From: an uncultured delta proteobacterium
GTDB taxonomy: Bacteria > Desulfobacterota > Binatia > UBA9968
Reading direction: 5' to 3'
Assembly (NCBI GenBank): GCA_963728565.1
Contig: CAVSLC010000019.1
Location: 160,001-224,000, forward strand
DNA length: 64,000 nucleotides
Part shown: in pieces, positions 4,805-51,013 of the stretch
Layout of the letters: every line of letters starts with the position of its first letter
How positions within the stretch are numbered: the stretch's first letter is position 1
Notes under the pieces: generated by a model
Told to the model about the DNA's origin: nothing
Seen by the model: only the letters and a program-made list of their open reading frames with translations
Database searches by the model: none
Translations under genes and position numbers: made by a program

Positions 4805-5687
4805 AAAGCAGGTCGACGATAAGATTCGCGCTGACCAGGAGAGCCGTATAGATAAGCGTCACACCCATGATCAACGGATAATCCCGATCGGTCACCGCGG
4901 TGATGAAGAAACGCCCCATGCCGGGAATCGCAAAGACGTATTCGACCACGAAAGACCCGGTGAGGAGCGTCGCGGTCAGCGGTCCCATGACCGTGAGCAT
5001 GGGAATCAGCGACTGACTAAGGGCGTGCTTGAACAGCACACCGGCTTCGGTGATGCCCTTGGCGCGGGCGGTACGGATAAAATCTTCGCCCAAGGTTTCG
5101 ATCAATGACGAACGCAGCAGCGCCGAGAGATACGCAGCCGGCGCGGCGCCCAACGTAATAGTCGGTAGGACCGCGCTGCTGAGAGCGTCCCAACGAGCTG
5201 CGTGAAACCAATTGAGCTGGAGAGCCAGCGCCCATATCAATACTGCGCCGAGAATAAAATGAGGCACGGATATTCCGATGGATGCCGAGATCATCAACCA
5301 TCGATCAATCCATGAGCCGCGGCAATAGGCGGCGAACAGGCCGACGGGAATCGAGACTGCAAGCGCGAAGCCGATCGCGAGCGCTCCCAGGAGCGCCGAG
5401 GTCGGCAAGGTATCGCGGACAATATCATTGACGCCCCGATCCAAATACTTATACGAAGGTCCGAGGTCGCCGCGGAGGACGCCGGCGAGATAGCGGAGAT
5501 ACTGCTTGAAGAAAGATTCGTCGAGATGATACTTGGCTTCGAGATTGGCAACGACTTGCGGCGGAAGTTTGCGCTCGCGGTCAAAAGGCCCGCCCGGGGT
5601 CAAGCGCAAAAGCACGAATGTCAAGCTGGCGACGACCCAGAGAACGGCAACGCCGTGGCAAATTCGTTTCAGCAGAAACGGCGCCAT
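4770..5687 (-). CDS. oppB: Oligopeptide ABC transporter permease
   Basis: PGGPF, GDLGPS, TARAKG, RDYPLIMG, DPRIR motifs. Confidence 0.92.
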   Translation of the reverse strand: MAPFLLKRICHGVAVLWVVASLTFVLLRLTPGGPFDRERKLPPQVVANLEAKYHLDESFFKQYLRYLAGVLRGDLGPSYKYLDRGVNDIVRDTLPTSALLGALAIGFALAVSIPVGLFAAYCRGSWIDRWLMISASIGISVPHFILGAVLIWALALQLNWFHAARWDALSSAVLPTITLGAAPAAYLSALLRSSLIETLGEDFIRTARAKGITEAGVLFKHALSQSLIPMLTVMGPLTATLLTGSFVVEYVFAIPGMGRFFITAVTDRDYPLIMGVTLIYTALLVSANLIVDLLYGIVDPRIRSQ

Positions 5688-7212
5688 GAATATTCGATCA
5701 GTTCGGTTACCGAAAGACCGCCCGTCTTAGGCGTAAAGATTACCGCGGGCGCGGCCGCTCTTTTTTCAAGCGCCAAGGTCATTCCTTTGGTTTGGACATA
5801 GATCTGACTGCATTCGCGCCGGGTAAGTTGTTGCAGCAGCATCAGCAGAGGCGTTCTTGCGCTGATGTACTCTTTCGGAGCGCCGGCATCGCGCAGCGCA
5901 TCGACATCGTCTTTGCCGACGACATAATACATCAGCAACTGGTCGTCGTTGACAGAGGAGCCGCCAAATTTGTCTCGAACCTCTTCGAGGGTCGGTTGCG
6001 GCGGCACCCAAGCGGCAAACTCTTTGGCGCGCGGACCGCTTAGCAACTTGTCTTTGATATTGGGATCGACTTCGGATGCTGCTTCTTCGCCCCATAAGCC
6101 GGTTGCATATTGAATCACTTGATCGGTGACTTGGCCGTATCGTTCTCCCTTGATCACGTTGATGGCAGCCTGGCTGCCGACGAACTGCGAAAAAGGCGTG
6201 ACCATGATCGGATAACCGAGATCGGCGCGGACTTGCACCGCCTCCTCGAGGATCTTCGGCAGTAAATGGATCAATCCCAAATTGCGCAGCTGATGATGAA
6301 AGTTAGAGATCATGCCGCCGGGGACCTGGTGGACATACTGGGCATAGTCGTATTCCACGGGCGCGCCGAGAGGCAACTCTTCCTGCTTGGCGAAAACCGT
6401 GAGATCACGGGCTACCGATCCGAGCTCTTGCTCGTCGATGACCGGTGAGTAACCCAAAGCCCGGGCATTCTGGGCGACGTTGAAAATCGATGGATTCGAA
6501 GAAGCGTTGGCCAGGGGCGGAACCGATGTGTCTATTACCTGGACGCCCAGTTTCACCGCTTCCAGCGCGCACAGCGGACCTAAGCCGGTGGTGCAGTGAA
6601 CATGGAGCTCGATAGGAAAACCGGGCGCTTGTTCTTGAATCACTTTGATCAGGGCAGCCGTGCGCTCGGGAGTCAGCAGTCCGCCGGGATCTTTTAAGCA
6701 GATGTAGTCCGGTTTGAGCGCCGGCGGCTTCGCCTGCCTTACGCCGGTAGTAATCCATCGGTGTGTTTGGGCGAAACTGAAAAGATTAGATTCAGCACCG
6801 TGCCGAGGCCGTTGCGCTTGGCCCGGCTGACGGATTTACGCCAACCCGCGGGATCGTTGGCGGGATCGGAGATTCGTAGCTGCTTGATGCCATTGGCGAC
6901 CAGGCGCTCAAACCAGAGCTCGACAACCGAATCCGGGGTCAACTCGAATGCGCTGATGCGTTCGGCGCCGATTGCGCGCAGCGGAGTTTTCCTGATTTTA
7001 TCGGCAACCAGGCGAATGCGCTCAAAGGGATCTTCCTTGAGCTCGCGCACGCATTTTTTGATGTGACTGGAAGCGATCAGCTCGATGGCTTGAAAGCCGG
7101 CATTGTCGATGCGTTCCGCTACCGCCAACATCATGCCAGTGCGCATATTCTCCGCCCACAGGCTGGCTTGCCCATCGCGCAGGGTTGTATCGACGAATCT
7201 TACTTCACTCAT
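5669..7212 (-). CDS. Pyruvate carboxylase subunit B / oxaloacetate decarboxylase alpha-type carboxyltransferase without biotin domain; frameshifts near 6755 and 6722
   Basis: DTTLRDGQ, LKDPGG, LHVHCTTG, HQVPGGMISN and YPIMVTPFSQFVG motifs spread over three frames. Confidence 0.85.
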
Positions 7213-11364: not shown

Positions 11365-12396
11365 ATGGACGCCAAAGAGCTTCTGCAAACCCATGTCGTG
11401 GTCGAAGGACATCGGGACGTTTATGAGCAGCTCTACAGGACCTCGATCGGCGAATCGATGCCAATCCGCGATGCGATTGCGCCGCGATTGATTCGTGACG
11501 GCATCAATCTCTCCGTCTACGCTATCAGCGGCGATTCTTATTCTCATTCGCAAAATACCGGCCGCTACCTGGAGACCGCGCTCGAAAACATCGACCAGTT
11601 TCTGCAGGAAGCGCCCAAATCCGAGGGCATGATCTCGATGGTCAGAACCCGCGGCGATCTGCCGGAAAAAGTCGAGCCCGGGACGATAAAATTTTTGCTC
11701 CACTTCGAAGGCTGCATGCCTTTGCGCGGCAGCATCCAAAATCTCAGAAACTTCTATCGCCTGGGGCTGCGCTCGTTGCAGCCGGTTTGGAATTTTCGCA
11801 ACGAGCTCGGCGACGGCGTCTGGGAGAATCGAACCGGGGGAGGGCTCACGAACTTTGGCGTCGAAGTGATTAAGGAGGCCAATCGCCTGGGCATGATCGT
11901 CGATTTGTCGCACATGAATCGGGAAGGTTTTTTCCAGAGCCTCGACGTCGCCACCGCGCCGCTCATCGTCAGTCACGCCAACGCCTGCGGCATGCTCGAC
12001 AGCGTGAGAAATCTCGCCGACGATCAAATCAAAGCGATTGCCGAGCAGGGCGGCCTGGTAGGCATTCTCGCCTTGCCGGAGCGGGTCGGCCAAGGCGAAG
12101 TCGTTATCGAGGATATGCTGAGGCACATGGACTACATGATCAAACTAGTGGGCGTCGAGCATCTGGCTCTGGGCATGGATTTCGTCAAATATGACGGGCC
12201 GCGCACGCTTAAAGATCGTCATCATCCGTTGCACAAAGACCCGTTGATCAAGGGATTCGAAGAGATCGAAGATTTGCCCAATCTGATTGACGGCCTGCAG
12301 AAGCACGGTTATCACGAAAACGAAATTGCTCTGATCCTGGGCGGCAACTATCTGCGGGTGTTGAAGACGATCCTCCCGGAACAGTCCATCATCTAA
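11365..12396 (+). CDS. Membrane dipeptidase family (M19) amidohydrolase
   Basis: EGHRD, HFEG, GLTNFG, DLSH, SHANA, RNLADD, LGMDF, LGGNYLRV. Confidence 0.88.
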   Translation: MDAKELLQTHVVVEGHRDVYEQLYRTSIGESMPIRDAIAPRLIRDGINLSVYAISGDSYSHSQNTGRYLETALENIDQFLQEAPKSEGMISMVRTRGDLPEKVEPGTIKFLLHFEGCMPLRGSIQNLRNFYRLGLRSLQPVWNFRNELGDGVWENRTGGGLTNFGVEVIKEANRLGMIVDLSHMNREGFFQSLDVATAPLIVSHANACGMLDSVRNLADDQIKAIAEQGGLVGILALPERVGQGEVVIEDMLRHMDYMIKLVGVEHLALGMDFVKYDGPRTLKDRHHPLHKDPLIKGFEEIEDLPNLIDGLQKHGYHENEIALILGGNYLRVLKTILPEQSII

Positions 12397-12411
12397 TCAA
12401 CCATTGTTGGT

Positions 12412-14677
12412 ATGATAGGCGGTCAGAAGGCTTCTCGCGTCGACGGTTTCGAGAAAGTTACCGGCGAGGCGAAATATACCGGCGATCTGAATCTGCCCGG
12501 TCTGCTGGAGGCAAAAGTCCTGCGCAGCCCCTTTCCCCATGCGCGCATCGAATCGATTAATACCGAGAAGGCTGCTGCTCTTTCCGGAGTGGTGGCGATA
12601 CTGACCCGCGACGACCTCAAAGACATCAATCCCTTTTATGGTAATTGTCTGCGCGATCGCCCGCTGGTGGCGTTGGACAAAGTTCGGTTTGTCGGCGAGC
12701 CGGTGGCGGTGGTCGCTGCTGAAGATCCATTGATTGCCGAGGAAGCGCTGGCTCTGATCGACGTGCGCTATCAGGAGCTGCCGTGCCTTGGGACGGTTGA
12801 AGACGCGCTCGCCGCCGGCGCCCCGCTTGTGCACGAAAGCATCGCCGGCACCGGCGAATTCCACGACATCGCCACCGTCGGCGCGGTGATGAAGCCCAAC
12901 GTCTGTCATTTTGAATTCTTTGAAAGAGGAGATGTGACCCGCGGCTTTGCCCAAGCCGACCAGATTCTCGAGGAAGCTTTCCAGTTCCCGATGATCTATC
13001 AGTACGCCATGGAGCCGCACACTTCAGTGGCGCGGGTCACCGACGGCGGCATTACCCTGTGGAGCTCTTCGGCTCATCCGTTTCTGGTTCGCTCCGAACT
13101 GGCGCACATGTTCGGCTTGCCACATGCAAAAGTCGAGGTCATTGTGCCGTACGTCGGCGGCGCTTACGGCAGCAAATCTTATTTCAAGATCGAACCGTTG
13201 ATCGTCGCCATGGCGCGCAAGACCGCCGGTCGACCGGTGCGCCTTGCGCAAAGCGTGCCGGAGGCGATGCTGACGACGCGGCGCCACTCCGCCAATGTGC
13301 GCATCAAGACCGGCTTTAACCGCGACGGGACCCTGGTGGCGCGGGAGGCCGAAGTGGTGCTGGATACCGGCGCGTATGCCGATAACGGACCGCGCGTGGC
13401 CAAGCGCGCGATCAGCCGCATGATCGGCCCCTACAAATTGGGCGATTGCAAAGTCGAGGTCTCAGCGGTTTACACCAACACGGTTCCGGCCGGTTCGATG
13501 CGTTCCATTGGCGGGCCGCAGACGATCTGGGCCTTGGAATCGCACATGGACAGTATCGCTCATCGACTCAACTTGGACCCGCTGCAATTTCGCATGCGCA
13601 ATTTACTCAAGCGCGGCGAAGAGCTAAAAAGCGGCGCCACGCCGGTCGACGCCGATCTGCGGCAAGGAACCAAAGTCGCCGCCGATTATGTCTGCTGGAG
13701 CGAGCGACCCAGTCGAATAGGCAAGGGCCGGGGTGTTGCCGTTGGGGTTTCCGACTCCGAAGCGATGCCGGTTTCGGTGGCCCTGCTCAGGCTTCTTGCC
13801 GACGGCAGCGTTCTCTTGCTAGCCGGCACCACTGAAGTGGGTCAGGGCGCGCGCACGATCCTCAGCCAAATCGTCGCGCGGGAACTGGATGTTCCGATTC
13901 AATCCGTGATCATGCGCGGCACCGATACCTTGGCGACCCCTTTCGACCGTTCTACCGGCGCTAGCCGCTCAACCACAGTGATGGGAAGCGCAGTCCAACT
14001 CGCCGCGCGCGATTTGCGCAAGCAGTTGATCGCCGCCGCCGCCGAAGCGCTCGGCGTCAACACTAGCTCGATTACCTTGCGCAACGGCACCGCCAGTTGC
14101 GGCGATCGTTGTCTGACTTATAGCGATGTGGTCAGCAGGTATTTTGGCATGCCCGGCGGCGAACTCATCGGCCGTGGCACCATGCGCCCGGGACAGGGCC
14201 TGGGTCCGAAGTTACCCCTATTCTGGGAAACCGGCATGGGCGCCGCGGAAATTTCACTGGATATCGAAACCGGGGCGATCCGAGTCGATCGCTACATCAC
14301 AGTTGCCGACGTCGGCAAGGCTATCAATCTTGTGCAAGCCGAAGGTCAGGATGAAGGCGCCGCCATTCAGGGATTGGGGCACACGTCTGTTTGAGTCACT
14401 GTACTACGAGAACGGCCAGCCGGTGAACGCCAATCTGGTCGACTACCGCGTGCCGCGGTTCACCGATATGCCCGAGCACTTCGATTCAGCATTGATCGAA
14501 AATGAAGACGGCCCAGGGCCCTATGGCGCCAAAGGAATGGGTGAATCGGGGATCGTCTCGATAGCGCCGGCAATCGGCAACGCGATCTTCCAAGCGACCG
14601 GAGTGCGGATTCGCACTTTGCCGTTGACTCCGGAACGAATCTGGCGCGCGCTTAACGACGCAAAGCGCGGCATGTGA
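12412..14677 (+). CDS. Xanthine dehydrogenase family molybdopterin-binding large subunit; frameshift near 14390
   Basis: KVTGEAKY, RSPFPHARI, MEPH, GGAYGSK, EVGQG, GPYGAKGMGE, LPLTPE. Confidence 0.92.
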
Positions 14678-42746: not shown

Positions 42747-43250
42747 CTACAGCTCGAGAACAGCACCGCAGCTTTTACAGGTCGCCAGATTTTTATCGCT
42801 GCGCATCGCCTCGCTCGCTTTTGTCACCGCATCTGAAGGATCCTCGAAGCGCAGCTCGGTCTCATAGAGACTCTTCTGGCATTCTTCGCAAACCCATATA
42901 AAAAGATCCCTTTCGTCGTGAGTGCGCTTCCTTTCAACCACAAACGTCCAGGAACCTTCGCGCCGCCTCGGCGAGTGGGGCACTCTCGCGGGCATAAGAA
43001 AAAGATCGCCGGTGTTGAGTACCGCGAGTTCCGGCTTGCCGTCGCATAAGTAGTGAAGATTGAGTTCGCCTTGGAGTTGATAGAAGATTTCATCACCGGG
43101 GTTGATGTGAAAATCTTTGCGCCGGTTGGGACCGCGGGTAACGAAGGCGATGAAATCCGAATCATTCCAGATCACCCGGCGTTGTCCCCAGTTGTTGCGG
43201 TTTTCGTCGATCCATCGCTGTAAGTTGAAGCCTTTCAGATGGGGGAACAT
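42747..43250 (-). CDS. nbaC: 3-hydroxyanthranilate 3,4-dioxygenase
   Basis: GPNRRKDFHINPGDEIFYQ, VPHSPRR, VVERKR and rubredoxin-like CEEC/CKSC. Confidence 0.88.
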   Translation of the reverse strand: MFPHLKGFNLQRWIDENRNNWGQRRVIWNDSDFIAFVTRGPNRRKDFHINPGDEIFYQLQGELNLHYLCDGKPELAVLNTGDLFLMPARVPHSPRRREGSWTFVVERKRTHDERDLFIWVCEECQKSLYETELRFEDPSDAVTKASEAMRSDKNLATCKSCGAVLEL

Positions 43251-43310
43251 ACAACCTCCTTGGCCGCAGTCGAATATAGAATCGAGGCCAGCCAGGAATC
43301 AAGAGCGACC

Positions 43311-43805
43311 ATGGCAGCACGAAAACAGCGGCGGATCGCGCTGAAGCAAGGGCGCATCGGCTTAATTTCCGACACCCACGGGTTGGTTCGACCGGAAGCT
43401 CTCGCGGCACTAAACGGCGTCGAGCTCATCGTGCATGCTGGGGATATAGGGAAGCCTGAAGTGTTGGATTGCTTGCAGGCCATTGCACCCTTAGCAGCCA
43501 TCAAAGGCAACAACGATCTCGCACCATGGTCGCGGCACATTCCCGAAGCGCTCGATCTGCTCCTTAACCACACAGGCGTACGGGTGATTCATAATGTTCA
43601 TGATCTAGAAAACAAGTTGCCGCCCGCGGGTGTTCAGGTCGTGATCAGCGGCCATTCTCATAAACCGTCAGTCGTGAGACGAGACAATGTGCTTTTTGTA
43701 AACCCCGGAAGCGCCGGCCCGCGACGTTTCAAACTGCCGGTGACCGTAGGGCTGTTACTATTGCAAAACGCTGACGTGCACGCAGAAATTATTCACTTGT
43801 TCTGA
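43311..43805 (+). CDS. Metallophosphoesterase (YfcE/MJ0936 family)
   Basis: ISDTHG, HAGDIG, GNND, GHSH, NPGSAG. Confidence 0.9.
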   Translation: MAARKQRRIALKQGRIGLISDTHGLVRPEALAALNGVELIVHAGDIGKPEVLDCLQAIAPLAAIKGNNDLAPWSRHIPEALDLLLNHTGVRVIHNVHDLENKLPPAGVQVVISGHSHKPSVVRRDNVLFVNPGSAGPRRFKLPVTVGLLLLQNADVHAEIIHLF

Positions 43806-43856: not shown

Positions 43857-43886
43857 TTGACTTTGGCTCTCCGTCAGGCGATAAAT
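43857..43886 (+). promoter_or_regulatory. Putative promoter of the pyr operon
   Basis: TTGACT followed 17 nt later by GATAAAT, just upstream of the attenuator. Confidence 0.45.
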
Positions 43887-43891
43887 AGCAA

Positions 43892-44004
43892 ATCCTTTTA
43901 AACCGGTCCTGTGAGATCGGTAAGGGAGCCATGCGGATAGTTACACCCCCAAGATTTTCCGGATTCTTCGGGCCTCCTCAACGCGGTTGAGGGGGTCTTT
44001 TTTT
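43892..44004 (+). promoter_or_regulatory. PyrR-binding attenuator (binding loop, antiterminator, terminator)
   Basis: CCTTTTAAACCGGTCCTGTGAGATCGGTAAGG resembles the PyrR binding-loop consensus (UUUAA...GUCCNGNGAG); ACCCCCAA is partly complementary to TTGAGGGGGT of the terminator GGCCTCCTCAAC-GCG-GTTGAGGGGGTC-T7. Confidence 0.85.
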
Positions 44005-44008
44005 ATCT

Positions 44009-44557
44009 ATGGCCAGTGAAAAACAAATCGTCCTGACCAAGCAGGAGTTGGCCAAAGCGATTACCCGCATGGCTCATGAGATGCTTGAGAAAGCCGACAG
44101 CTTTGATGAGTTGACGCTCATCGGCATACGTTCCCGCGGCGTGCATATCGCTCGGCGTTTGGCCCGTAAGATCGAAGAGCTTACCGAGCACGCACCGCCA
44201 CTAGGTGTCCTCGATGTGACGCTTTTTCGTGATGATAAGACGCAAACACAAGCTTCCGCTGCGGCAACCGCGGGTGAAATCTCGGTCACGCTGGAAAACA
44301 GGATCGCCGTCTTAGTCGACGATGTTATTTTTCGTGGGCGGACGATCCGCGCGGCCCTGGAAGCGGTCGAGCGTCTCGGCCATGCCAAACGGATCATCCT
44401 GGCGGTTCTGATCGATCGCGGCGCGCGGGAGTTGCCAATCCGGGCCGATATCGTCGGCAAGAATATCGAAGCTTCGGATTCGCAACGAGTGAACGTCTTG
44501 CTGGAAGAATCCGATGGCATCGATCAAGTGATTGTGACGCCCTGGAATCCAGCTTGA
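44009..44557 (+). CDS. pyrR: Pyrimidine attenuation regulator / UPRTase PyrR
   Basis: TRMAHEM, GIRSRG, DVTLFRDD, LVDDVIFRGRTIRAAL, DRGARELPIRAD. Confidence 0.93.
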   Translation: MASEKQIVLTKQELAKAITRMAHEMLEKADSFDELTLIGIRSRGVHIARRLARKIEELTEHAPPLGVLDVTLFRDDKTQTQASAAATAGEISVTLENRIAVLVDDVIFRGRTIRAALEAVERLGHAKRIILAVLIDRGARELPIRADIVGKNIEASDSQRVNVLLEESDGIDQVIVTPWNPA

Positions 44558-44567
44558 GGAATCGAAC

Positions 44568-46490
44568 GTGACCACGGCTAACCTAGTTTCCATCGCGGAT
44601 CTCACCAATGACGAGATCGAAGAGATTTTCGATTTAGCAGACGCATCCGACAGGTTGCGCAGTAAAAAGGTCGGCCATGGCAAGATCATGGCCACTTTGT
44701 TCTACGAACCGAGTACTCGCACTCGTTTATCGTTCGAATCCTCAATGCAGCGGCTCGGCGGCACTGTGATCAGCTGTTCGGATATGCAGGCCTCGTCGGC
44801 TGCCAAGGGGGAGAGTGTCGCCGACACCGCCAAAGTAGTCTCGAGTTATGCCGACGTTCTCGTGGTTCGGCATTACTGGGACGGCGCAGTCCAGGCTGTG
44901 GCTGAGCACGCCGACGTTCAGGTGATCAATGCCGGGGACGGCGGCCATGAACATCCGAGTCAGACGCTTTGCGATCTCTATACGCTGCGCAAAGAGAAGG
45001 GCGAGCTCAAGGGTCTCAACGTGGTTATTTGCGGCGACTTAAAAAACGGTCGAACAATTCATTCTCTGGTGTATGCATTGGCCAGGTTCGGCGCCAATAT
45101 TGTGACTCTGGCAGCCAACGGGATGGAGCTGCCCCACTACGTTCTGGAGCGATTGGAGCGCGAGTTTCAGTATACCTTAGCGCCGGTTGCCGGCGACGAT
45201 CTGAGCGCCGTGGTTACCGAGACCGATGCTTTTTATCTCACTCCCAAGCAGCCGCATCAGCTGGCTTTGTTTACCGCGCTGGACAGCACGATTCAGACTC
45301 GGATTACGAGTCTGGTATCGGGATTGCGCTATGACGCTTTTTACATGACGAGAAAGCAAAAAGAGCGCATGACAAACTCTGCGGCGGCGGGTGACTATCC
45401 CACCATCGGATCTAAGTTTCTCAAAGAGCAGCGCTTCAAAGATACAGTGGTGATGCATCCCTTGCCGCGGGTCGACGAGCTTTCGCCGGAGCTTGACAAG
45501 GATCGGCGCGGCATCTATTTCAAGCAAGCCGCGTATGGGGTGCCTATTCGTATGGCGCTGCTACATTTTCTGTTTGAGAAAAGGCGCCGAGCAGGGATCG
45601 GCAAGATGGCAAAAAGCTCGGTGCTATTCGAAAGCCCGCACCCGATCGGCCCGCATTGCCCTAATCTCAAGTGCATTACTGTCAACGAGCCGGGTTCGAC
45701 GCGGCTTCGGTTTGAGCTTCAATCCGAAGGCCCCGCCGGCGCGTTGATTTTGCGATGCCTTTACTGCGACCACCGCTTCAAAGTGCAGCTCGTCGGTCAA
45801 GTGACCTCAAAGAAGTATTGCGCCTACGATATCGCGCTTGCGGATAACATTGCGCGTTGGCTTAAGGACGGTGAACTGGCAATCTTTGATTCCATCAAGC
45901 AAGCTGAAGAGCTTGGCTATGGACCTTACGAGAGCGGTCCGCGCCGTGCCATTATGGGTCAAGCTGAAGTAGATTCTGCAATACAGCAGATAAGTGCCCA
46001 GATTTTAGGCGATTACGCCAATCCGGACCGCTTGCTGATTGTCGGCGTCAAAACCAACGGATCGATGATCGCCCAACGAATCGCCGCCAATCTAGAAAGA
46101 GCACAAAAGCGAAAATTTGAACTGGCCGAGCTTGAAACCTATGGAGCGGGCGAAGACCTTCGCCGCGTGTTTCCCGCGGATCCCGAGTTAGGACCGATCC
46201 AATTGCGCGATCGATCCATCATTCTGGTTGATGACGTCATTCATACCGGACGAACGGTGAAGACCGCCTTGAGCATCATTTTTAGATCGGGGCGGCCCCA
46301 ATCGGTGCGTCTGGCGGTTTTGATTGACCGCGGGCATCGGCAGATTCCGGTCAAACCTAATTACGTCGGTAAACATATACCCACCGCAGACCACGAGCGC
46401 GTGCGTGTTCATTTGCGAGAACTGGAGCCCGATGGGCAAGATAAGGTGCTGGTTTATTCCATCATCAACCCAGGCGAGAACCGCCGCTGA
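44568..46490 (+). CDS. pyrB: Aspartate carbamoyltransferase fused to a PyrI-type zinc domain and a C-terminal PyrR/PRTase domain
   Basis: FYEPSTRTRLSF, HPSQTLCD, MHPLPR, YFKQAAYG; then CPNLKCIT...LRCLYCD; then LVDDVIHTGRT and DRGHRQIP in one 640-aa frame. Confidence 0.92.
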   Translation: MTTANLVSIADLTNDEIEEIFDLADASDRLRSKKVGHGKIMATLFYEPSTRTRLSFESSMQRLGGTVISCSDMQASSAAKGESVADTAKVVSSYADVLVVRHYWDGAVQAVAEHADVQVINAGDGGHEHPSQTLCDLYTLRKEKGELKGLNVVICGDLKNGRTIHSLVYALARFGANIVTLAANGMELPHYVLERLEREFQYTLAPVAGDDLSAVVTETDAFYLTPKQPHQLALFTALDSTIQTRITSLVSGLRYDAFYMTRKQKERMTNSAAAGDYPTIGSKFLKEQRFKDTVVMHPLPRVDELSPELDKDRRGIYFKQAAYGVPIRMALLHFLFEKRRRAGIGKMAKSSVLFESPHPIGPHCPNLKCITVNEPGSTRLRFELQSEGPAGALILRCLYCDHRFKVQLVGQVTSKKYCAYDIALADNIARWLKDGELAIFDSIKQAEELGYGPYESGPRRAIMGQAEVDSAIQQISAQILGDYANPDRLLIVGVKTNGSMIAQRIAANLERAQKRKFELAELETYGAGEDLRRVFPADPELGPIQLRDRSIILVDDVIHTGRTVKTALSIIFRSGRPQSVRLAVLIDRGHRQIPVKPNYVGKHIPTADHERVRVHLRELEPDGQDKVLVYSIINPGENRR

Positions 46491-46592: not shown

Positions 46593-47765
46593 ATGTTAAG
46601 AAAAGCAATATTGGCGCTGGCCGACGGCCGAGCTTTCGACGGCTTGTCTTTTGGAGCCGAAGGTGAAGTCGCGGGTGAAGTGGTGTTTAACACCAGTATG
46701 ACCGGGTATCAGGAGATTCTCACCGACCCCTCATACGAAGGCCAGCTCGTGGCCATGACTTATCCGCAGATCGGCAACGTCGGCATCAACCCGGAGGACG
46801 TAGAATCCCACAAGCCTTTTGTCAAAGGTTTCATCGTCAAAGAGTATACGGCGATGCCGAGCAATTGGCGCGCGACACAGCCGTTGCATGTTTATATGCA
46901 GCAGCACGGCATCGTCGGAATCCAAGGGATCGATACACGTTCTCTGGTCCGTCATCTGCGCGATTGTGGCGCGCAGGTGGGCGTGATCACAACTAGTTCC
47001 CAGAATACTGACGAGGCGATTGCAAAAGCCAAGGCTGCTCCAGGACTCGAGGGCCGTGATCTAGTGCGCAACGTGAGCTGTGCGAGTGCCTATGAATGGC
47101 ATCAGGGTTTGTGGCGACTGGGCGAAGGATATCGCAATCCGCCGGACGAGCCGCGGCGAAAAAAAAATGCCACGGATCGGGGACGCTCTGCTGTCCCTGT
47201 GCGTTCCGTCGTGGCTTACGATTTCGGCATCAAGTACAACATCTTGCGAAATCTCGCCGAGAGCGGTTGCCGGGTGAGAGTCGTTCCCGCCCATACTTCC
47301 GCAGAAGATGTTCTGGCCTTAAACCCCGACGGCATATTTCTATCCAATGGACCGGGCGATCCGGACGCGGTGTCTTATGCCAAAGACAACATCCGCAAGT
47401 TGATCGGCAGGAAACCAATCTTTGGTATCTGCCTCGGCCATCAAATTTTGGGTTTGGCCCTGGGTGGCAAGACTTATAAACTCAAATTCGGTCACCATGG
47501 CGGTAATCAGCCGGTGATGGACTTAACCACGCGTAAAGTAGAGATCACATCGCAGAACCACGGCTTCGCCGTGGATGCCGATTCTTTAAAAGGTTCGGTC
47601 CAAGTTACCCATCTCAATCTTAACGACAACACGGTGGAGGGGCTGGTGCATCGAGATTTGCCGATCTTCTCGGTGCAATATCATCCCGAGTCGTCACCCG
47701 GGCCGCACGATGCCAGCTACCTTTTCAAACGCTTCATCGAATTAATGGACCAGCACCAGGGTTAA
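46593..47765 (+). CDS. carA: Carbamoyl-phosphate synthase small subunit
   Basis: [33 protein letters not shown]. Confidence 0.97.
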
Positions 47766-47773
47766 CATTTTCG

Positions 47774-50700
47774 ATGCCGAAACGCACCGACATCAAGTCG
47801 ATCCTGCTGATAAGTTCAGGTCCGATTATAATCGGCCAAGCTTGCGAGTTCGATTATTCCGGCACACAGGCGCTCAAGGCGCTTAAAGAAGAGGGCTATC
47901 GGGTCATTCTCGTCAACTCCAATCCGGCAACCATCATGACCGATCCGGAGTTCGCGCATCGGACCTACATCGAGCCTATTACCGCTGATATTGTCGAGAA
48001 GGTGATTGCCAAGGAGCGGCCGGACGCGCTTCTGCCCACGTTGGGCGGACAAACGGCGCTCAATTTGGCCATCGATCTGGCGGAGAAGGGGGTCTTGGCG
48101 CGTTACGGCGTCGAGATGATCGGCGCCAAATTGGAATCAATCAAGAAGGCCGAAGACCGCGATCTGTTCAAGGAAGCGATGAAACGAGCCGGTTTGGATC
48201 TGCCGCGCAGCGGCTACGCGCGCAGCATGCGCGATGCCATGCGCATTCAGAAGCGGCTCGATTTTCCAGTCATCATCCGCGCCTCGCGCACGCTCGGCGG
48301 CAGCGGCGGCAGTTTTGCCTTTGGCCCGGAGGAGTTCCAAGAGGTGGTGCAAGCGGGCTTGAGCATCTCACCGGTTCACGAAGTGTTGATCGAAGAGTCG
48401 ATCATCGGCTGGAAAGAGTTCGAGCTCGAGGTCATGCGTGATCACAAGGACAACGTGGTGATCATCTGCTCCATCGAAAACTTCGACCCTATGGGCGTGC
48501 ACACAGGGGACTCGATCACAGTCGCGCCGGCGCAGACCCTGACCGACAAAGAATATCAGATCATGCGCGATGCCTCGTTGCGCGTGATTCGAGAAATCGG
48601 CGTCGAAACCGGCGGTTCCAATATTCAATTCGCGGTCAATCCGAAGGATGGCCGCATGGTGGTTATCGAGATGAACCCCCGGGTATCGCGAAGCTCGGCA
48701 TTGGCGAGCAAAGCAACCGGTTTCCCCATCGCCAAAATTGCCGCGAAGCTGGCAATCGGCTACACGTTGGATGAGATCCGCAACGACATCACCCGGGAAA
48801 CGCCGGCTTGCTTCGAACCGACTATCGACTATGTCGTGGTCAAAGTTCCACGCTTCACCTTCGAAAAGTTTCCCCAAGCCAAAGATTTGCTGACGCCGCA
48901 GATGAAGTCCGTGGGCGAAGCCATGGCCATTGGCCGCACCTTTAAGGAGGCGCTGCAAAAATCCATGCGTTCTCTCGAGATCGGTTCGTTTGGCTTTGAG
49001 CCTCGGGTAGACCTATCGCTTGATCGACGTGATCATGCCTTGAACACGGTTCGTGAGAAACTGAAAAATCCCAATTCACAACGGCTATGGTACTTGGCCG
49101 ATGCGTTCCGGCTCGACATGCCCGCCGAAGAGATCTATGAGCTGTCCCGTTTCGATCCATGGTTCGTCGAAAAGGTGCGCGAGATCGTCGCTACCGAGAG
49201 CGAGATCGCGGCGCATCGCGGCAAGTTGAATGAAGTCAGTAGCGAGGCGATGCGGGATTGGAAACAGATGGGCTTTGCCGACGTGCGCCTTGCCGATCTA
49301 ACGGGAACGACTGAAGCCGAGGTGCGCCGTCTACGAAAGTCTCAGGGCATCGAAGCTGTATTTTGTTCGGTGGATACTTGCGGCGCCGAATTCAAAGCGT
49401 TTACCCCTTACCTCTATTCGACTTACGAAGGCGAAGATGAGTCGAAGCCGACGCATCGCAGGAAAGTCATGATTCTCGGCGGCGGGCCCAATCGGATCGG
49501 CCAGGGTATCGAGTTTGATTACTGCTGCGTGCATGCCGCCTTTGCTCTCAAAGAAGACGGTTACGAGACTATCATGGTCAATTGCAACCCGGAGACTGTC
49601 AGCACGGACTATGACACGTCGGACAAGCTATACTTCGAGCCCCTGACCTTGGAAGAGGTTCTGAATATTGTCGATCGGGAAAATCCCGACGGTGTCATCG
49701 TTCAATTCGGCGGGCAAACGCCGCTTAAACTGGCATTGCCGCTAGAACGCGCCGGAGTAAAAATAATCGGCACCTCGCCGGACAGCATCGACCTCGCCGA
49801 AGACCGCGAGCGCTTTTCCGCGCTGCTCAAAAGACTCGGCATTAGACAACCCGATAACGGCATCGCGCGCTCCTATGAAGAGGCCTTTAACATCGCCGGG
49901 CGCTTGGGATATCCGGTGCTGGTTCGACCCTCGTACGTGCTCGGCGGGCGGGCAATGGAGATCGTTTATGATGCGGAATCGTTGCGGCGCTACATGACCT
50001 ACGCCGTGTCGGCATCGCCGGAGCACCCGGTTCTGGTAGATAAATTTCTCGATGATGCCATCGAAGTCGATGTCGATGCTTTGGCGGACGGGGATGAGGT
50101 CATCATCGGCGGGATCATGGAACACATCGAGCGGGCCGGCGTGCACTCTGGCGACAGCGCGTGTAGTTTGCCGCCGAAGTCGATCGGTGCAGAGGTCCAA
50201 GACACAATCCGGCAACATAGCATCCTCCTGGCCAAAGCTCTCAACGTCCGCGGCCTGATGAATGTTCAGTTCGCGGTCCAAGACAATAATGTGTTCGTGC
50301 TCGAGGTCAATCCGCGGGCCTCCCGTACGGTTCCTTTCGTCAGCAAAGCCACCGGCGTGCCTTTGGCAAAGATCGCCGCTCGAGTCATGGTCGGCCGCAA
50401 GCTACGCGAACTTGGCCTCACCAATGAGGTAGTGCCAAAGCACATTTCGGTTAAGGAGGCCGTCTTTCCCTTCAACAAATTTCCCGGAGTCGATACTTTG
50501 CTCGGCCCGGAGATGAAATCCACCGGAGAAGTGATGGGGATCGATGCCAATTTCGGAGTTGCGTTCGCGAAAGCGCAACTAGGCGGCGGTATGCGGTTGC
50601 CGCGTAAAGGGCGGGTGTTTATCAGCGTGCGTGACGAAGACAAAAAAATCGCCGCGGCCATTGCGCAGAGACTGCAGCACAGCGGATTTCGGATTATCGC

Positions 50701-51013
50701 AACACGGGGCACCGCGGCTTTTTTCACAGAGCGCGGCATCGCCACCGAGATCGTCAACAAAGTTCAGGACGGCAGCCCGCATATCGGTGATAAGATCAGA
50801 ACAGGGAAGATTGCCATGGTGGTCAATACGCCGGCTGATGCGAATTCCCAGGCCGATTCCTATGATCTCCGGCGTGGCGCGCTGGATTTTAATATTCCTT
50901 ACTTTACGACCATGGCTGGCGCGCAGGCCGCTGCCGAGGCTATCGAGTATCTGCGCAACAACGACTTCGAAGTTCAAGCGTTACAGGATTATCTCACTCA
51001 TCCGCTACCGTAA
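47774..51013 (+). CDS. carB: Carbamoyl-phosphate synthase large subunit
   Basis: [47 protein letters not shown]; 1079 aa. Confidence 0.98.

Follow-up and report, generated by a model that had tools for sequence, protein, structure and literature searches.

A single-chain aspartate carbamoyltransferase with a PyrI-type zinc domain and a PyrR-derived domain in uncultured Binatia

We analyzed a 64,000-nucleotide stretch of DNA (hereafter the window) from an uncultured delta proteobacterium of the class Binatia (assembly GCA_963728565.1, contig CAVSLC010000019.1, positions 160,001 to 224,000), in which a gene at positions 44568 to 46490 encodes an unusual aspartate carbamoyltransferase (ATCase). 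The product of this gene is a single chain that comprises an ATCase catalytic chain, a PyrI-type zinc domain, an Ada-N-like domain, and a PyrR-derived domain. ATCase is a classic model of allosteric regulation, and to our knowledge the regulatory solutions found among such enzymes are few: PyrI, an inactive or active dihydroorotase partner, or none. In the window, a leader RNA and then pyrR precede the fused gene, which is followed by carA and carB, and in the list of open reading frames (ORFs) the GTG start of the fused gene lies 11 nucleotides past the stop codon of the gene upstream. The fused gene and the parts of its product, numbered in amino acids (aa) of the fused protein, are as follows:

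44568..46490, + strand: whole fused gene, 640 aa, uninterrupted frame, stop codon included
44580..45581, + strand: ATCase catalytic chain, aa 5-338 (TIGR00670, OTCace_N, OTCace)
45162..45332, + strand: insert specific to this family, within the aspartate domain, aa 199-255 (alignment to M. jannaschii)
45582..45641, + strand: variable junction between catalytic chain and zinc domain, aa 339-358 (mean pairwise identity 0.20)
45642..45791, + strand: PyrI-type zinc domain, aa 359-408 (PF02748; Cys364, Cys369, Cys397, Cys400)
45792..45941, + strand: Ada-N-like alpha/beta domain without cysteine ligands, aa 409-458 (structure search, conservation)
45942..46487, + strand: PyrR-derived domain of the phosphoribosyltransferase (PRTase) fold, aa 459-640 (NF003549; solved PyrR structures)

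A Pfam scan of the fused protein matched the catalytic chain to OTCace_N at aa 5-141 (161.4 bits against a cut-off of 29.9) and to OTCace (70.4 bits, cut-off 29.4), and the score of the NCBIfam ATCase model TIGR00670 (282.3 bits, cut-off 236.95) places it among ATCase catalytic chains. PyrI_C (PF02748) was found at aa 363-405 with 27.6 bits (cut-off 23.4), and with 31.8 bits in a second search, while Pribosyltran (PF00156) was found at aa 470-609 with 72.7 bits (cut-off 26.3). The NCBIfam PyrR equivalog NF003549 matched aa 459-630 with 146.8 bits (cut-off 138), and with 149.2 bits in a further search. The nucleotide-binding N-terminal domain of PyrI (PF01948) gave no match in the fused ORF, in the window's own genome, which is 80.55% complete, or in any of 201 genomes of the class; the same search was positive in seven control genomes. 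An earlier note, made from the letters of the window, had proposed just such a protein, namely one uninterrupted ORF of 640 aa that holds a complete ATCase chain, a PyrI_C zinc domain, and a PyrR fold, and from which the allosteric domain of PyrI is missing. The single open frame, the three parts, each over its curated cut-off, and the absence of PF01948 all bear this out, and the part boundaries that it gave were correct to within a few codons; only its "linker" between the zinc and PyrR parts has to be replaced, by the Ada-N-like domain described below. Apart from one other carbamoyltransferase match, the fused gene is the sole ATCase-like gene in the genome. A structure model of the full-length protein had a mean predicted local confidence (pLDDT) of 79.6 and a predicted template-modeling score of 0.65. 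ATCase catalytic chains were the only matches listed when Foldseek was run on this whole model, and such matches do not address the arrangement of the domains.

The fusion is genuine and not an artifact of assembly. In a search of 5.8 billion proteins, at least 120 protein clusters among the matches listed were 598-672 aa long and 71-96% identical to the fused protein, and PF00156, PF00185, and PF02729 occurred together in all 120 of the listed clusters. Their sole annotation was "aspartate carbamoyltransferase catalytic subunit", and the metagenome-assembled genomes from which they came were labeled Candidatus Binatia, Deltaproteobacteria, or Methylomirabilota. At 50% clustering, about three full-length fused clusters were found (P0122, P0132, and P0157), with all four parts kept and a C-terminal identity of 33-51%. 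We further compared the loci of relatives, taking one genome per species and keeping 80 loci of 501 confirmed stretches. An intact frame, with a start codon, a stop codon, and an alignment that begins at or before residue 6 of the query and reaches at least residue 630, was present in 72 of the 80. Of the eight others, six are truncated where a contig ends (L034, L066, L075, L080, L082, and L084), one has no start that could be found (L097), and one is frameshifted (L100). L100, in which a frame begins at the junction, was considered as a natural split of the gene and rejected: its ATCase is broken over several frames, and carA, carB, and pyrC are fragmented too, a breakage that we read as assembly frameshifts.

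Other candidates for separate parts were rejected as well. Four proteins whose frame is lost past the ATCase (P0341, P0342, P0364, and P0345) show the same type of error as L100. Two proteins that looked like stand-alone zinc-plus-PyrR chains, P0121 (327 aa) and P0127 (313 aa), still carry the final ATCase helix at their N terminus, and we read them as truncated gene calls; we read in the same way an apparently free regulatory chain in L018, which terminates at a contig end. More generally, in L100 (positions 4900-6900) and also in L056, L072, L088, and L093, one or another of carB, carA, pyrC, and the fusion is split into many overlapping frames, and these broken frames look like assembly indel errors rather than pseudogenes.

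Environmental sequences also cross the junctions. In an independent soil DNA run, contigs span positions 45193-45787 and 45758-45994 and are free of indels within the ORF, the only ones listed for these contigs lying outside it, at 43865-43869. Two soil RNA libraries also yielded contigs, 90-97% alike to the window, that span the junction between ATCase and zinc domain (45357-45769 and 45170-45703), and others cross the pyrR/pyrB boundary (44324-44713 and 44390-44752); since RNA libraries can contain DNA, these contigs are only a weak hint of expression. Runs X3, X15, and X17 left parts of the stretch without cover.

The spread of the architecture was followed with a 130-aa query that covers the zinc domain and the segment after it (zinc+linker). 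This segment was found in nine of the 401 genomes sampled across the phylum, in 175 of 401 genomes of the class, and in 128 of 271 high-quality ones, with no stops within the listed matches. It was concentrated in five families: f1 (55/63), f113 (4/4), f8 (1/1), f6 (93/94), and f116 (19/19). Families f115 and f118 gave single weak matches, and the segment was absent from the sampled genomes of f112 (27), f114 (8), f2 (13), f3 (3), f4 (55), f5 (25), f117 (18), and f7 (3). The tallies include eight unpublished genomes, all of which match (G728, G780, G738, G474, G759, G731, G600, and G595); without them the class count is 167/393. Five genomes from families that lack the fusion had only a distant ATCase, with 32-45% identity confined to the carbamoyl-phosphate domain. 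In the NCBI labels of the 80 loci, Candidatus Binatota/Binatia and the old "delta proteobacterium" predominate.

The active-site motifs of the catalytic chain, which we take to correspond to known E. coli residues, are fully conserved: STRTR 49-53, K80, R101-H102, H129-P130-Q132, R162, R262, Q264, and HPLPR 297-301 are invariant in all 76 aligned relatives. Judged by this conservation, the catalytic site is evidently intact. The chain scored highest against the ATCases of M. jannaschii (241 bits), P. abyssi (240 bits), and E. coli (about 200 bits), with plant ATCase and human CAD also close, and is distant from those of B. subtilis (123 bits) and Aquifex (107 bits); this closeness to archaeal and enteric enzymes places it with the kind of catalytic chain that is partnered by PyrI. 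Within the aspartate domain, aa 199-255 stand opposite only 18 residues of the M. jannaschii chain (202-219), which amounts to a 39-aa insert. Among the 76 relatives, Y223 of the insert is invariant, and L224, P226, P229, H230, Q231, L232, and T236 are conserved in at least 90%. The insert contains what looks like a near-repeat of the strand that comes after it (DAFYLTPKQ, then DAFYMTRKQKER) and is poorly ordered in the full-length model at aa 229-244 (pLDDT below 50), as is the junction at aa 341-350 (pLDDT below 50).

The four cysteines C364, C369, C397, and C400 (window positions 45657-45767) do not vary among the 76 full-length relatives that were aligned, and PF02748 matches the zinc domain in 74 of 74. 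We modeled aa 346-466 separately (pLDDT 75.4). Foldseek matches of this model were weak (expectation value, E, 0.045-0.72, with none at E<=0.001), and the first 20 rows listed were all ATCase regulatory chains, aligned over 43-54 columns with a root-mean-square deviation (rmsd) of 1.2-3.4. An independent structure search placed Moritella PyrI (2be7_D) first, with a Z score of 6.3, an rmsd of 2.4, and 49 aligned residues that correspond to residues 98-146 of that chain; the M. jannaschii PyrI scored Z 5.3 against the zinc-domain model. The domain is thus PyrI-like by profile and, as predicted from the model, by fold.

The stretch that follows, which the earlier note had passed over as a linker, is a conserved domain lacking cysteines. 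Residues 409-458 are folded in the full model (pLDDT 83-87), and W431, L437, F440, and A446 are invariant among relatives. They resembled best two structures of the Ada N-terminal domain, 1u8b_A (Z 5.4, rmsd 2.1, 48 aligned) and 1eyf_A (Z 4.4), with the next, unrelated row at Z 3.8. The Ada N-terminal profile PF02805 gave weak matches in 10 of 74 relatives, at a best E of 0.0066, and no match in the window's own copy. No conserved cysteines were found in the family consensus at the Ada motif positions, where we presume the Cys ligands of Ada to be located. At such Z values, the resemblance to Ada-N may be taken as a lead.

The last domain matched solved PyrR structures with E values of 4.8e-34 to 2.5e-25, among them 4p81 (E 4.8e-34) and 1a3c (E 9.1e-30). 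With a mean pairwise identity of 0.55, compared with 0.20 in the junction, it is evidently under constraint. We aligned 76 fused domains with 60 stand-alone PyrRs encoded directly upstream at the same loci and with 82 diverse PyrR representatives, using the residue numbers of the window's stand-alone PyrR. The pattern TR..H proved too strict, matching 16 of the 60 stand-alone PyrRs, and column counts were used instead. The phosphoribosyl loop, DDV..(T/S)G.T, is retained throughout, with D104, D105, V106, G110, and T112 present in 76 of 76 fused domains, as are R50, R125, and P126 (76/76). The base-binding hood, DRGHR, is present in 74 of 76, and basic residues by the hood are also kept (R140 76/76, K/R145 73/76, and K151 75/76). 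Features of the N-terminal helix and of two loops, by contrast, have been lost:

R20, N-terminal helix: stand-alone 60/60, diverse 68/82, fused 8/76
H23, N-terminal helix: stand-alone 57/60, diverse 42/82, fused 0/76
Basic residue 28: stand-alone 55/60, diverse 49/82, fused D/E in 71/76
R43, loop Arg preceding the conserved Gly: stand-alone 54/60, diverse 64/82, fused 5/76
R74 of the YRDD loop: stand-alone 60/60, diverse 78/82, fused 5/76

Work by Savacool and Switzer in 2002 is said to have placed residues of this helix on the RNA-binding face of the B. subtilis PyrR. In type I PRTases, the loop Arg before the Gly and the YRDD-type loop serve pyrophosphate binding and catalysis. Because these helix and loop features fail, despite a score over the cut-off of the PyrR equivalog, we call the domain PyrR-derived rather than PyrR. 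In a FastTree phylogeny, the fused domains group in a single clade (support 85), which does not fall among the PyrRs of the same genomes; the sisters listed for this clade are long-branch representatives without support. The fused and stand-alone copies of the window are 33% identical. As for PyrR itself, one article describes a dimer that binds RNA and has a basic concave surface, binding of uridine mono- and triphosphate (UMP/UTP), binding of GMP/GTP that opposes RNA binding, and, in B. subtilis, uracil phosphoribosyltransferase (UPRTase) activity of PyrR (PMC7430163).

Upstream and downstream of the fused gene, the operon includes the following features:

43891..44004, + strand: predicted PyrR-binding attenuator-like leader RNA with terminator stem and U-run (RF00515)
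44009..44557, + strand: stand-alone pyrR, 182 aa (NF003549, 201.2 bits, cut-off 138)
46593..47765, + strand: carA, the next gene of the operon
47774..51013, + strand: carB (ORF list, gene order in related loci)

The leader matched the full RF00515 model (1-115) at 50.6 bits and E 8.7e-05, the gathering score being 54, and its stem and U-run stop at 44004, five bases ahead of pyrR. At the same syntenic place, RF00515 scored 56-57 bits, over gathering, in two of 11 related loci, and 44-51 bits in four of five related loci searched at E<=0.01, the fifth (L040) yielding no match. By script criteria, pyrR lies directly upstream of the fusion in 61 of the 80 loci, the others being mostly cut by contig ends or having the upstream frame merged into a long stop-to-stop frame. 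The window's stand-alone PyrR has the canonical residues of the N-terminal helix (R20, H23, and K28) and a canonical FRDD loop. Stand-alone PyrRs here (44009-44557 and the upstream pyrR of L025-L104) keep the helix and the YRDD loop and have an atypical hood: position 139 is A, D, S, or E and not His (diverse PyrRs have H in 66/82), position 146 has Ala for Pro, and positions 154-155 have E-A/V for P-T. As the typical hood is kept in the fused copy, the two PyrR copies have diverged in complementary ways.

A shorter form of the protein was found when the catalytic part alone was used as a query. Eighteen proteins of 447-488 aa (P0350-P0389; L023:1510-1833, - strand), 53-58% identical to the catalytic part, consist of the ATCase, the zinc domain, and the Ada-like end, followed by a stop and thus without a PRTase fold; the motif of the insert is present in 15 of the 18. 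The form occurs in other phyla, two of the proteins carrying the source names Planctomycetota and Chloroflexota, and several are on long contigs. One of the 18 is encoded in G006, a genome from another class of the window's phylum, where pyrC immediately follows the gene; searches of this genome (84% complete) gave no PyrI N-domain and no PyrR. Since these short forms carry the core of ATCase, insert, zinc domain, and Ada-like domain without the PyrR part, the core is the wider unit; Binatia carry this core together with a PyrR-derived domain, which is a statement of layout and not of the order of events (gain in Binatia or loss elsewhere). The short form offers a natural control for the PyrR-derived part.

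What the PyrR-derived domain does for the enzyme can be approached from this pattern of retention and loss, which fits a domain that binds a phosphoribosyl compound and is neither RNA-binding nor efficiently catalytic. We lean, if only slightly, toward the domain being a non-catalytic, non-RNA-binding nucleotide sensor that regulates the ATCase; the retained loop and hood, the lost residues, and the presence of a separate pyrR support this idea indirectly. Such a domain would have given up RNA binding and UMP synthesis and would bind a nucleotide or phosphoribosyl pyrophosphate (PRPP), perhaps UMP/UTP against GMP/GTP if it resembles PyrR in this. The zinc domain would sit on the catalytic chain in the manner of the E. 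coli holoenzyme, paired C-terminal modules would bridge two catalytic trimers, and ligand occupancy of the PyrR-derived site would shift ATCase activity. Labor would then be divided, with free PyrR controlling how far the operon is transcribed and the fused PyrR-like domain controlling the enzyme. The resulting pyrimidine-versus-purine logic would parallel that of the E. coli ATCase, in which CTP and UTP, set against ATP, provide such control.

Several points weigh against a sensor. The ligand site is not uniform, because in a distant clade (L085-L104 and L018-L022; 18 of 76 fused domains) the phosphoribosyl loop has GWT in place of GRT. The roles assigned here to the residues lost from the fused domain are presumed ones. 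No upp gene reached its cut-off in the genome (80.55% complete), which leaves room for a catalytic UPRTase role of the fused domain. Finally, the existence of short forms without a PyrR part indicates that the zinc module has a role that needs no sensor, so it would not be present solely to relay a signal from the PyrR-derived domain.

In the alternative that fares best, the C-terminal module (zinc, Ada-like, and PyrR-derived domains) is a mere assembly scaffold that joins or stabilizes two trimers and carries no ligand signal. A precedent for scaffolding is the inactive PyrC' of Pseudomonas-type ATCase, and the zinc and Ada-like core evidently works without a sensor in the 18 short forms. PyrR-family proteins are moreover oligomeric, the PyrR dimer being described as RNA-binding in the same article (PMC7430163). 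A scaffold would not be expected, however, to keep its phosphoribosyl loop in every one of the 76 fused domains and its DRGHR hood in nearly all of them while the RNA face and the catalytic loops decay, and we consider this explanation unlikely.

Next in order, and somewhat less plausible, is a bifunctional enzyme in which the PyrR-derived domain is an active UPRTase, uniting pyrimidine salvage with de novo synthesis. The domain does score over the NF003549 cut-off with its PRPP loop intact, the best upp match in the window's genome, at its 80.55% completeness, stayed below the cut-off (29.7 bits against 208.35), and B. subtilis PyrR is a UPRTase according to PMC7430163. Against this, the Arg before the Gly and the Arg of the YRDD loop, both near-invariant in PyrRs, are each present in only 5 of 76 fused domains, and the adjacent stand-alone PyrR, which keeps both loops, could supply the activity.

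It is improbable, though conceivable, that the enzyme, through its PyrR-like domain, pairs with free PyrR made from the gene just upstream, either capturing and releasing this regulator according to nucleotide level or holding it as a detachable subunit. If this were true, a mixed oligomer of free and fused PyrR would place enzyme and attenuator in one nucleotide-controlled complex, and the ATCase would hold and release the regulator of its own operon, coupling feedback on activity with feedback on transcription. The two proteins share the PyrR fold at 33% identity, pyrR is the direct upstream neighbor in 61 of 80 loci, and RNA-library contigs cross the pyrR/pyrB boundary, a weak hint of one transcript. 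The order pyrR-pyrB is, however, common among bacteria without the fusion, so the synteny says little. Least credible of all is a fused domain that still binds pyr leader RNA and lets the enzyme regulate its own operon: its descent from PyrR and the conserved basic residues by the hood (R140, K/R145, and K151) would permit it, but R20, H23, and basic residue 28 of the helix are lost, acidic residues stand there instead, and a canonical PyrR is already present for the leader.

The closest counterparts of the fused protein are other ATCases and other uses of the PRTase fold. The class B ATCase of E. coli and archaea (PyrB6-PyrI6) shares a catalytic chain of the same sequence type and the four-Cys PyrI_C zinc domain. 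The fused protein differs from it in lacking the N-terminal nucleotide-binding domain of PyrI, in having the zinc domain fused behind the catalytic chain with the putative sensor after rather than before it, and in its extra Ada-like domain and 39-aa aspartate-domain insert. The Thermotoga-type PyrB-PyrI (NF009916, 525 positions) also combines catalytic and regulatory parts in one polypeptide, but it carries the whole of PyrI, including the allosteric domain, and both PF01948 and PF02748 match in a Thermotoga control genome; with NF009916 scoring 81.4 bits against a cut-off of 800, the window protein is not of this type. Compared with the PyrR of Bacillus and its relatives, the fused domain has the same fold and family and keeps the phosphoribosyl loop and hood, but it has lost the helix Arg and His, the loop Arg, and the YRDD loop, is joined to an enzyme, and forms a clade of its own. 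The short PyrB proteins share the catalytic part, the insert motif, and the same zinc and Ada-like end, and differ in ending there. The PRTase fold has elsewhere been reused in transcription factors to sense a phosphoribosyl compound, as in PurR of B. subtilis and the haloarchaeal GfcR (NF045507); in these the output is DNA binding, whereas here it would presumably be the activity of the fused enzyme. The earlier note had suspected an undescribed architecture, and in agreement with this, a search of the literature by title and abstract, with subscription journals and InterPro pages outside its scope, found no description of the fused form; nor did it find a paper on the short PyrB proteins with zinc and Ada-like domains.

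A few other features of these loci and genomes were noted. pyrC follows the fusion in all 20 distant-clade loci (L085-L104) and in none of L025-L083, and in the window's genome it lies on another contig (340.3 bits). A second dihydroorotase-like gene of this genome (G000:C4:94294-95583) scored 180.4 bits where TIGR00857 requires 279.05, and its product could be an inactive PyrC-like protein or a different cyclic amidohydrolase. Upstream of pyrR in the window is a Metallophos_2 phosphoesterase gene (43239-43805, + strand, 112.1 bits), a homolog of which is present at the corresponding position in many close-clade loci, and beyond it is an ORF of 167 aa (42747-43250, - strand) whose product, by eye, we take to resemble 3-hydroxyanthranilate 3,4-dioxygenase. 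In L029, positions 12238-12451 (- strand) matched RF02675 (Yersinia sRNA 141) at E 4.6e-08 and 42.2 bits, the gathering score being 196; this sequence is probably not a member of RF02675.

The fused ATCase belongs to a family that is abundant in soil Binatia, a group of which we know no cultured members. If the PyrR-derived domain is indeed a sensor, the family would show that the sensor module of an ATCase can be exchanged while the anchoring zinc domain of PyrI, which serves as the coupling piece, stays in place. It would likewise illustrate that a regulator gene can split into two copies, one that binds RNA and one that is bound to an enzyme.

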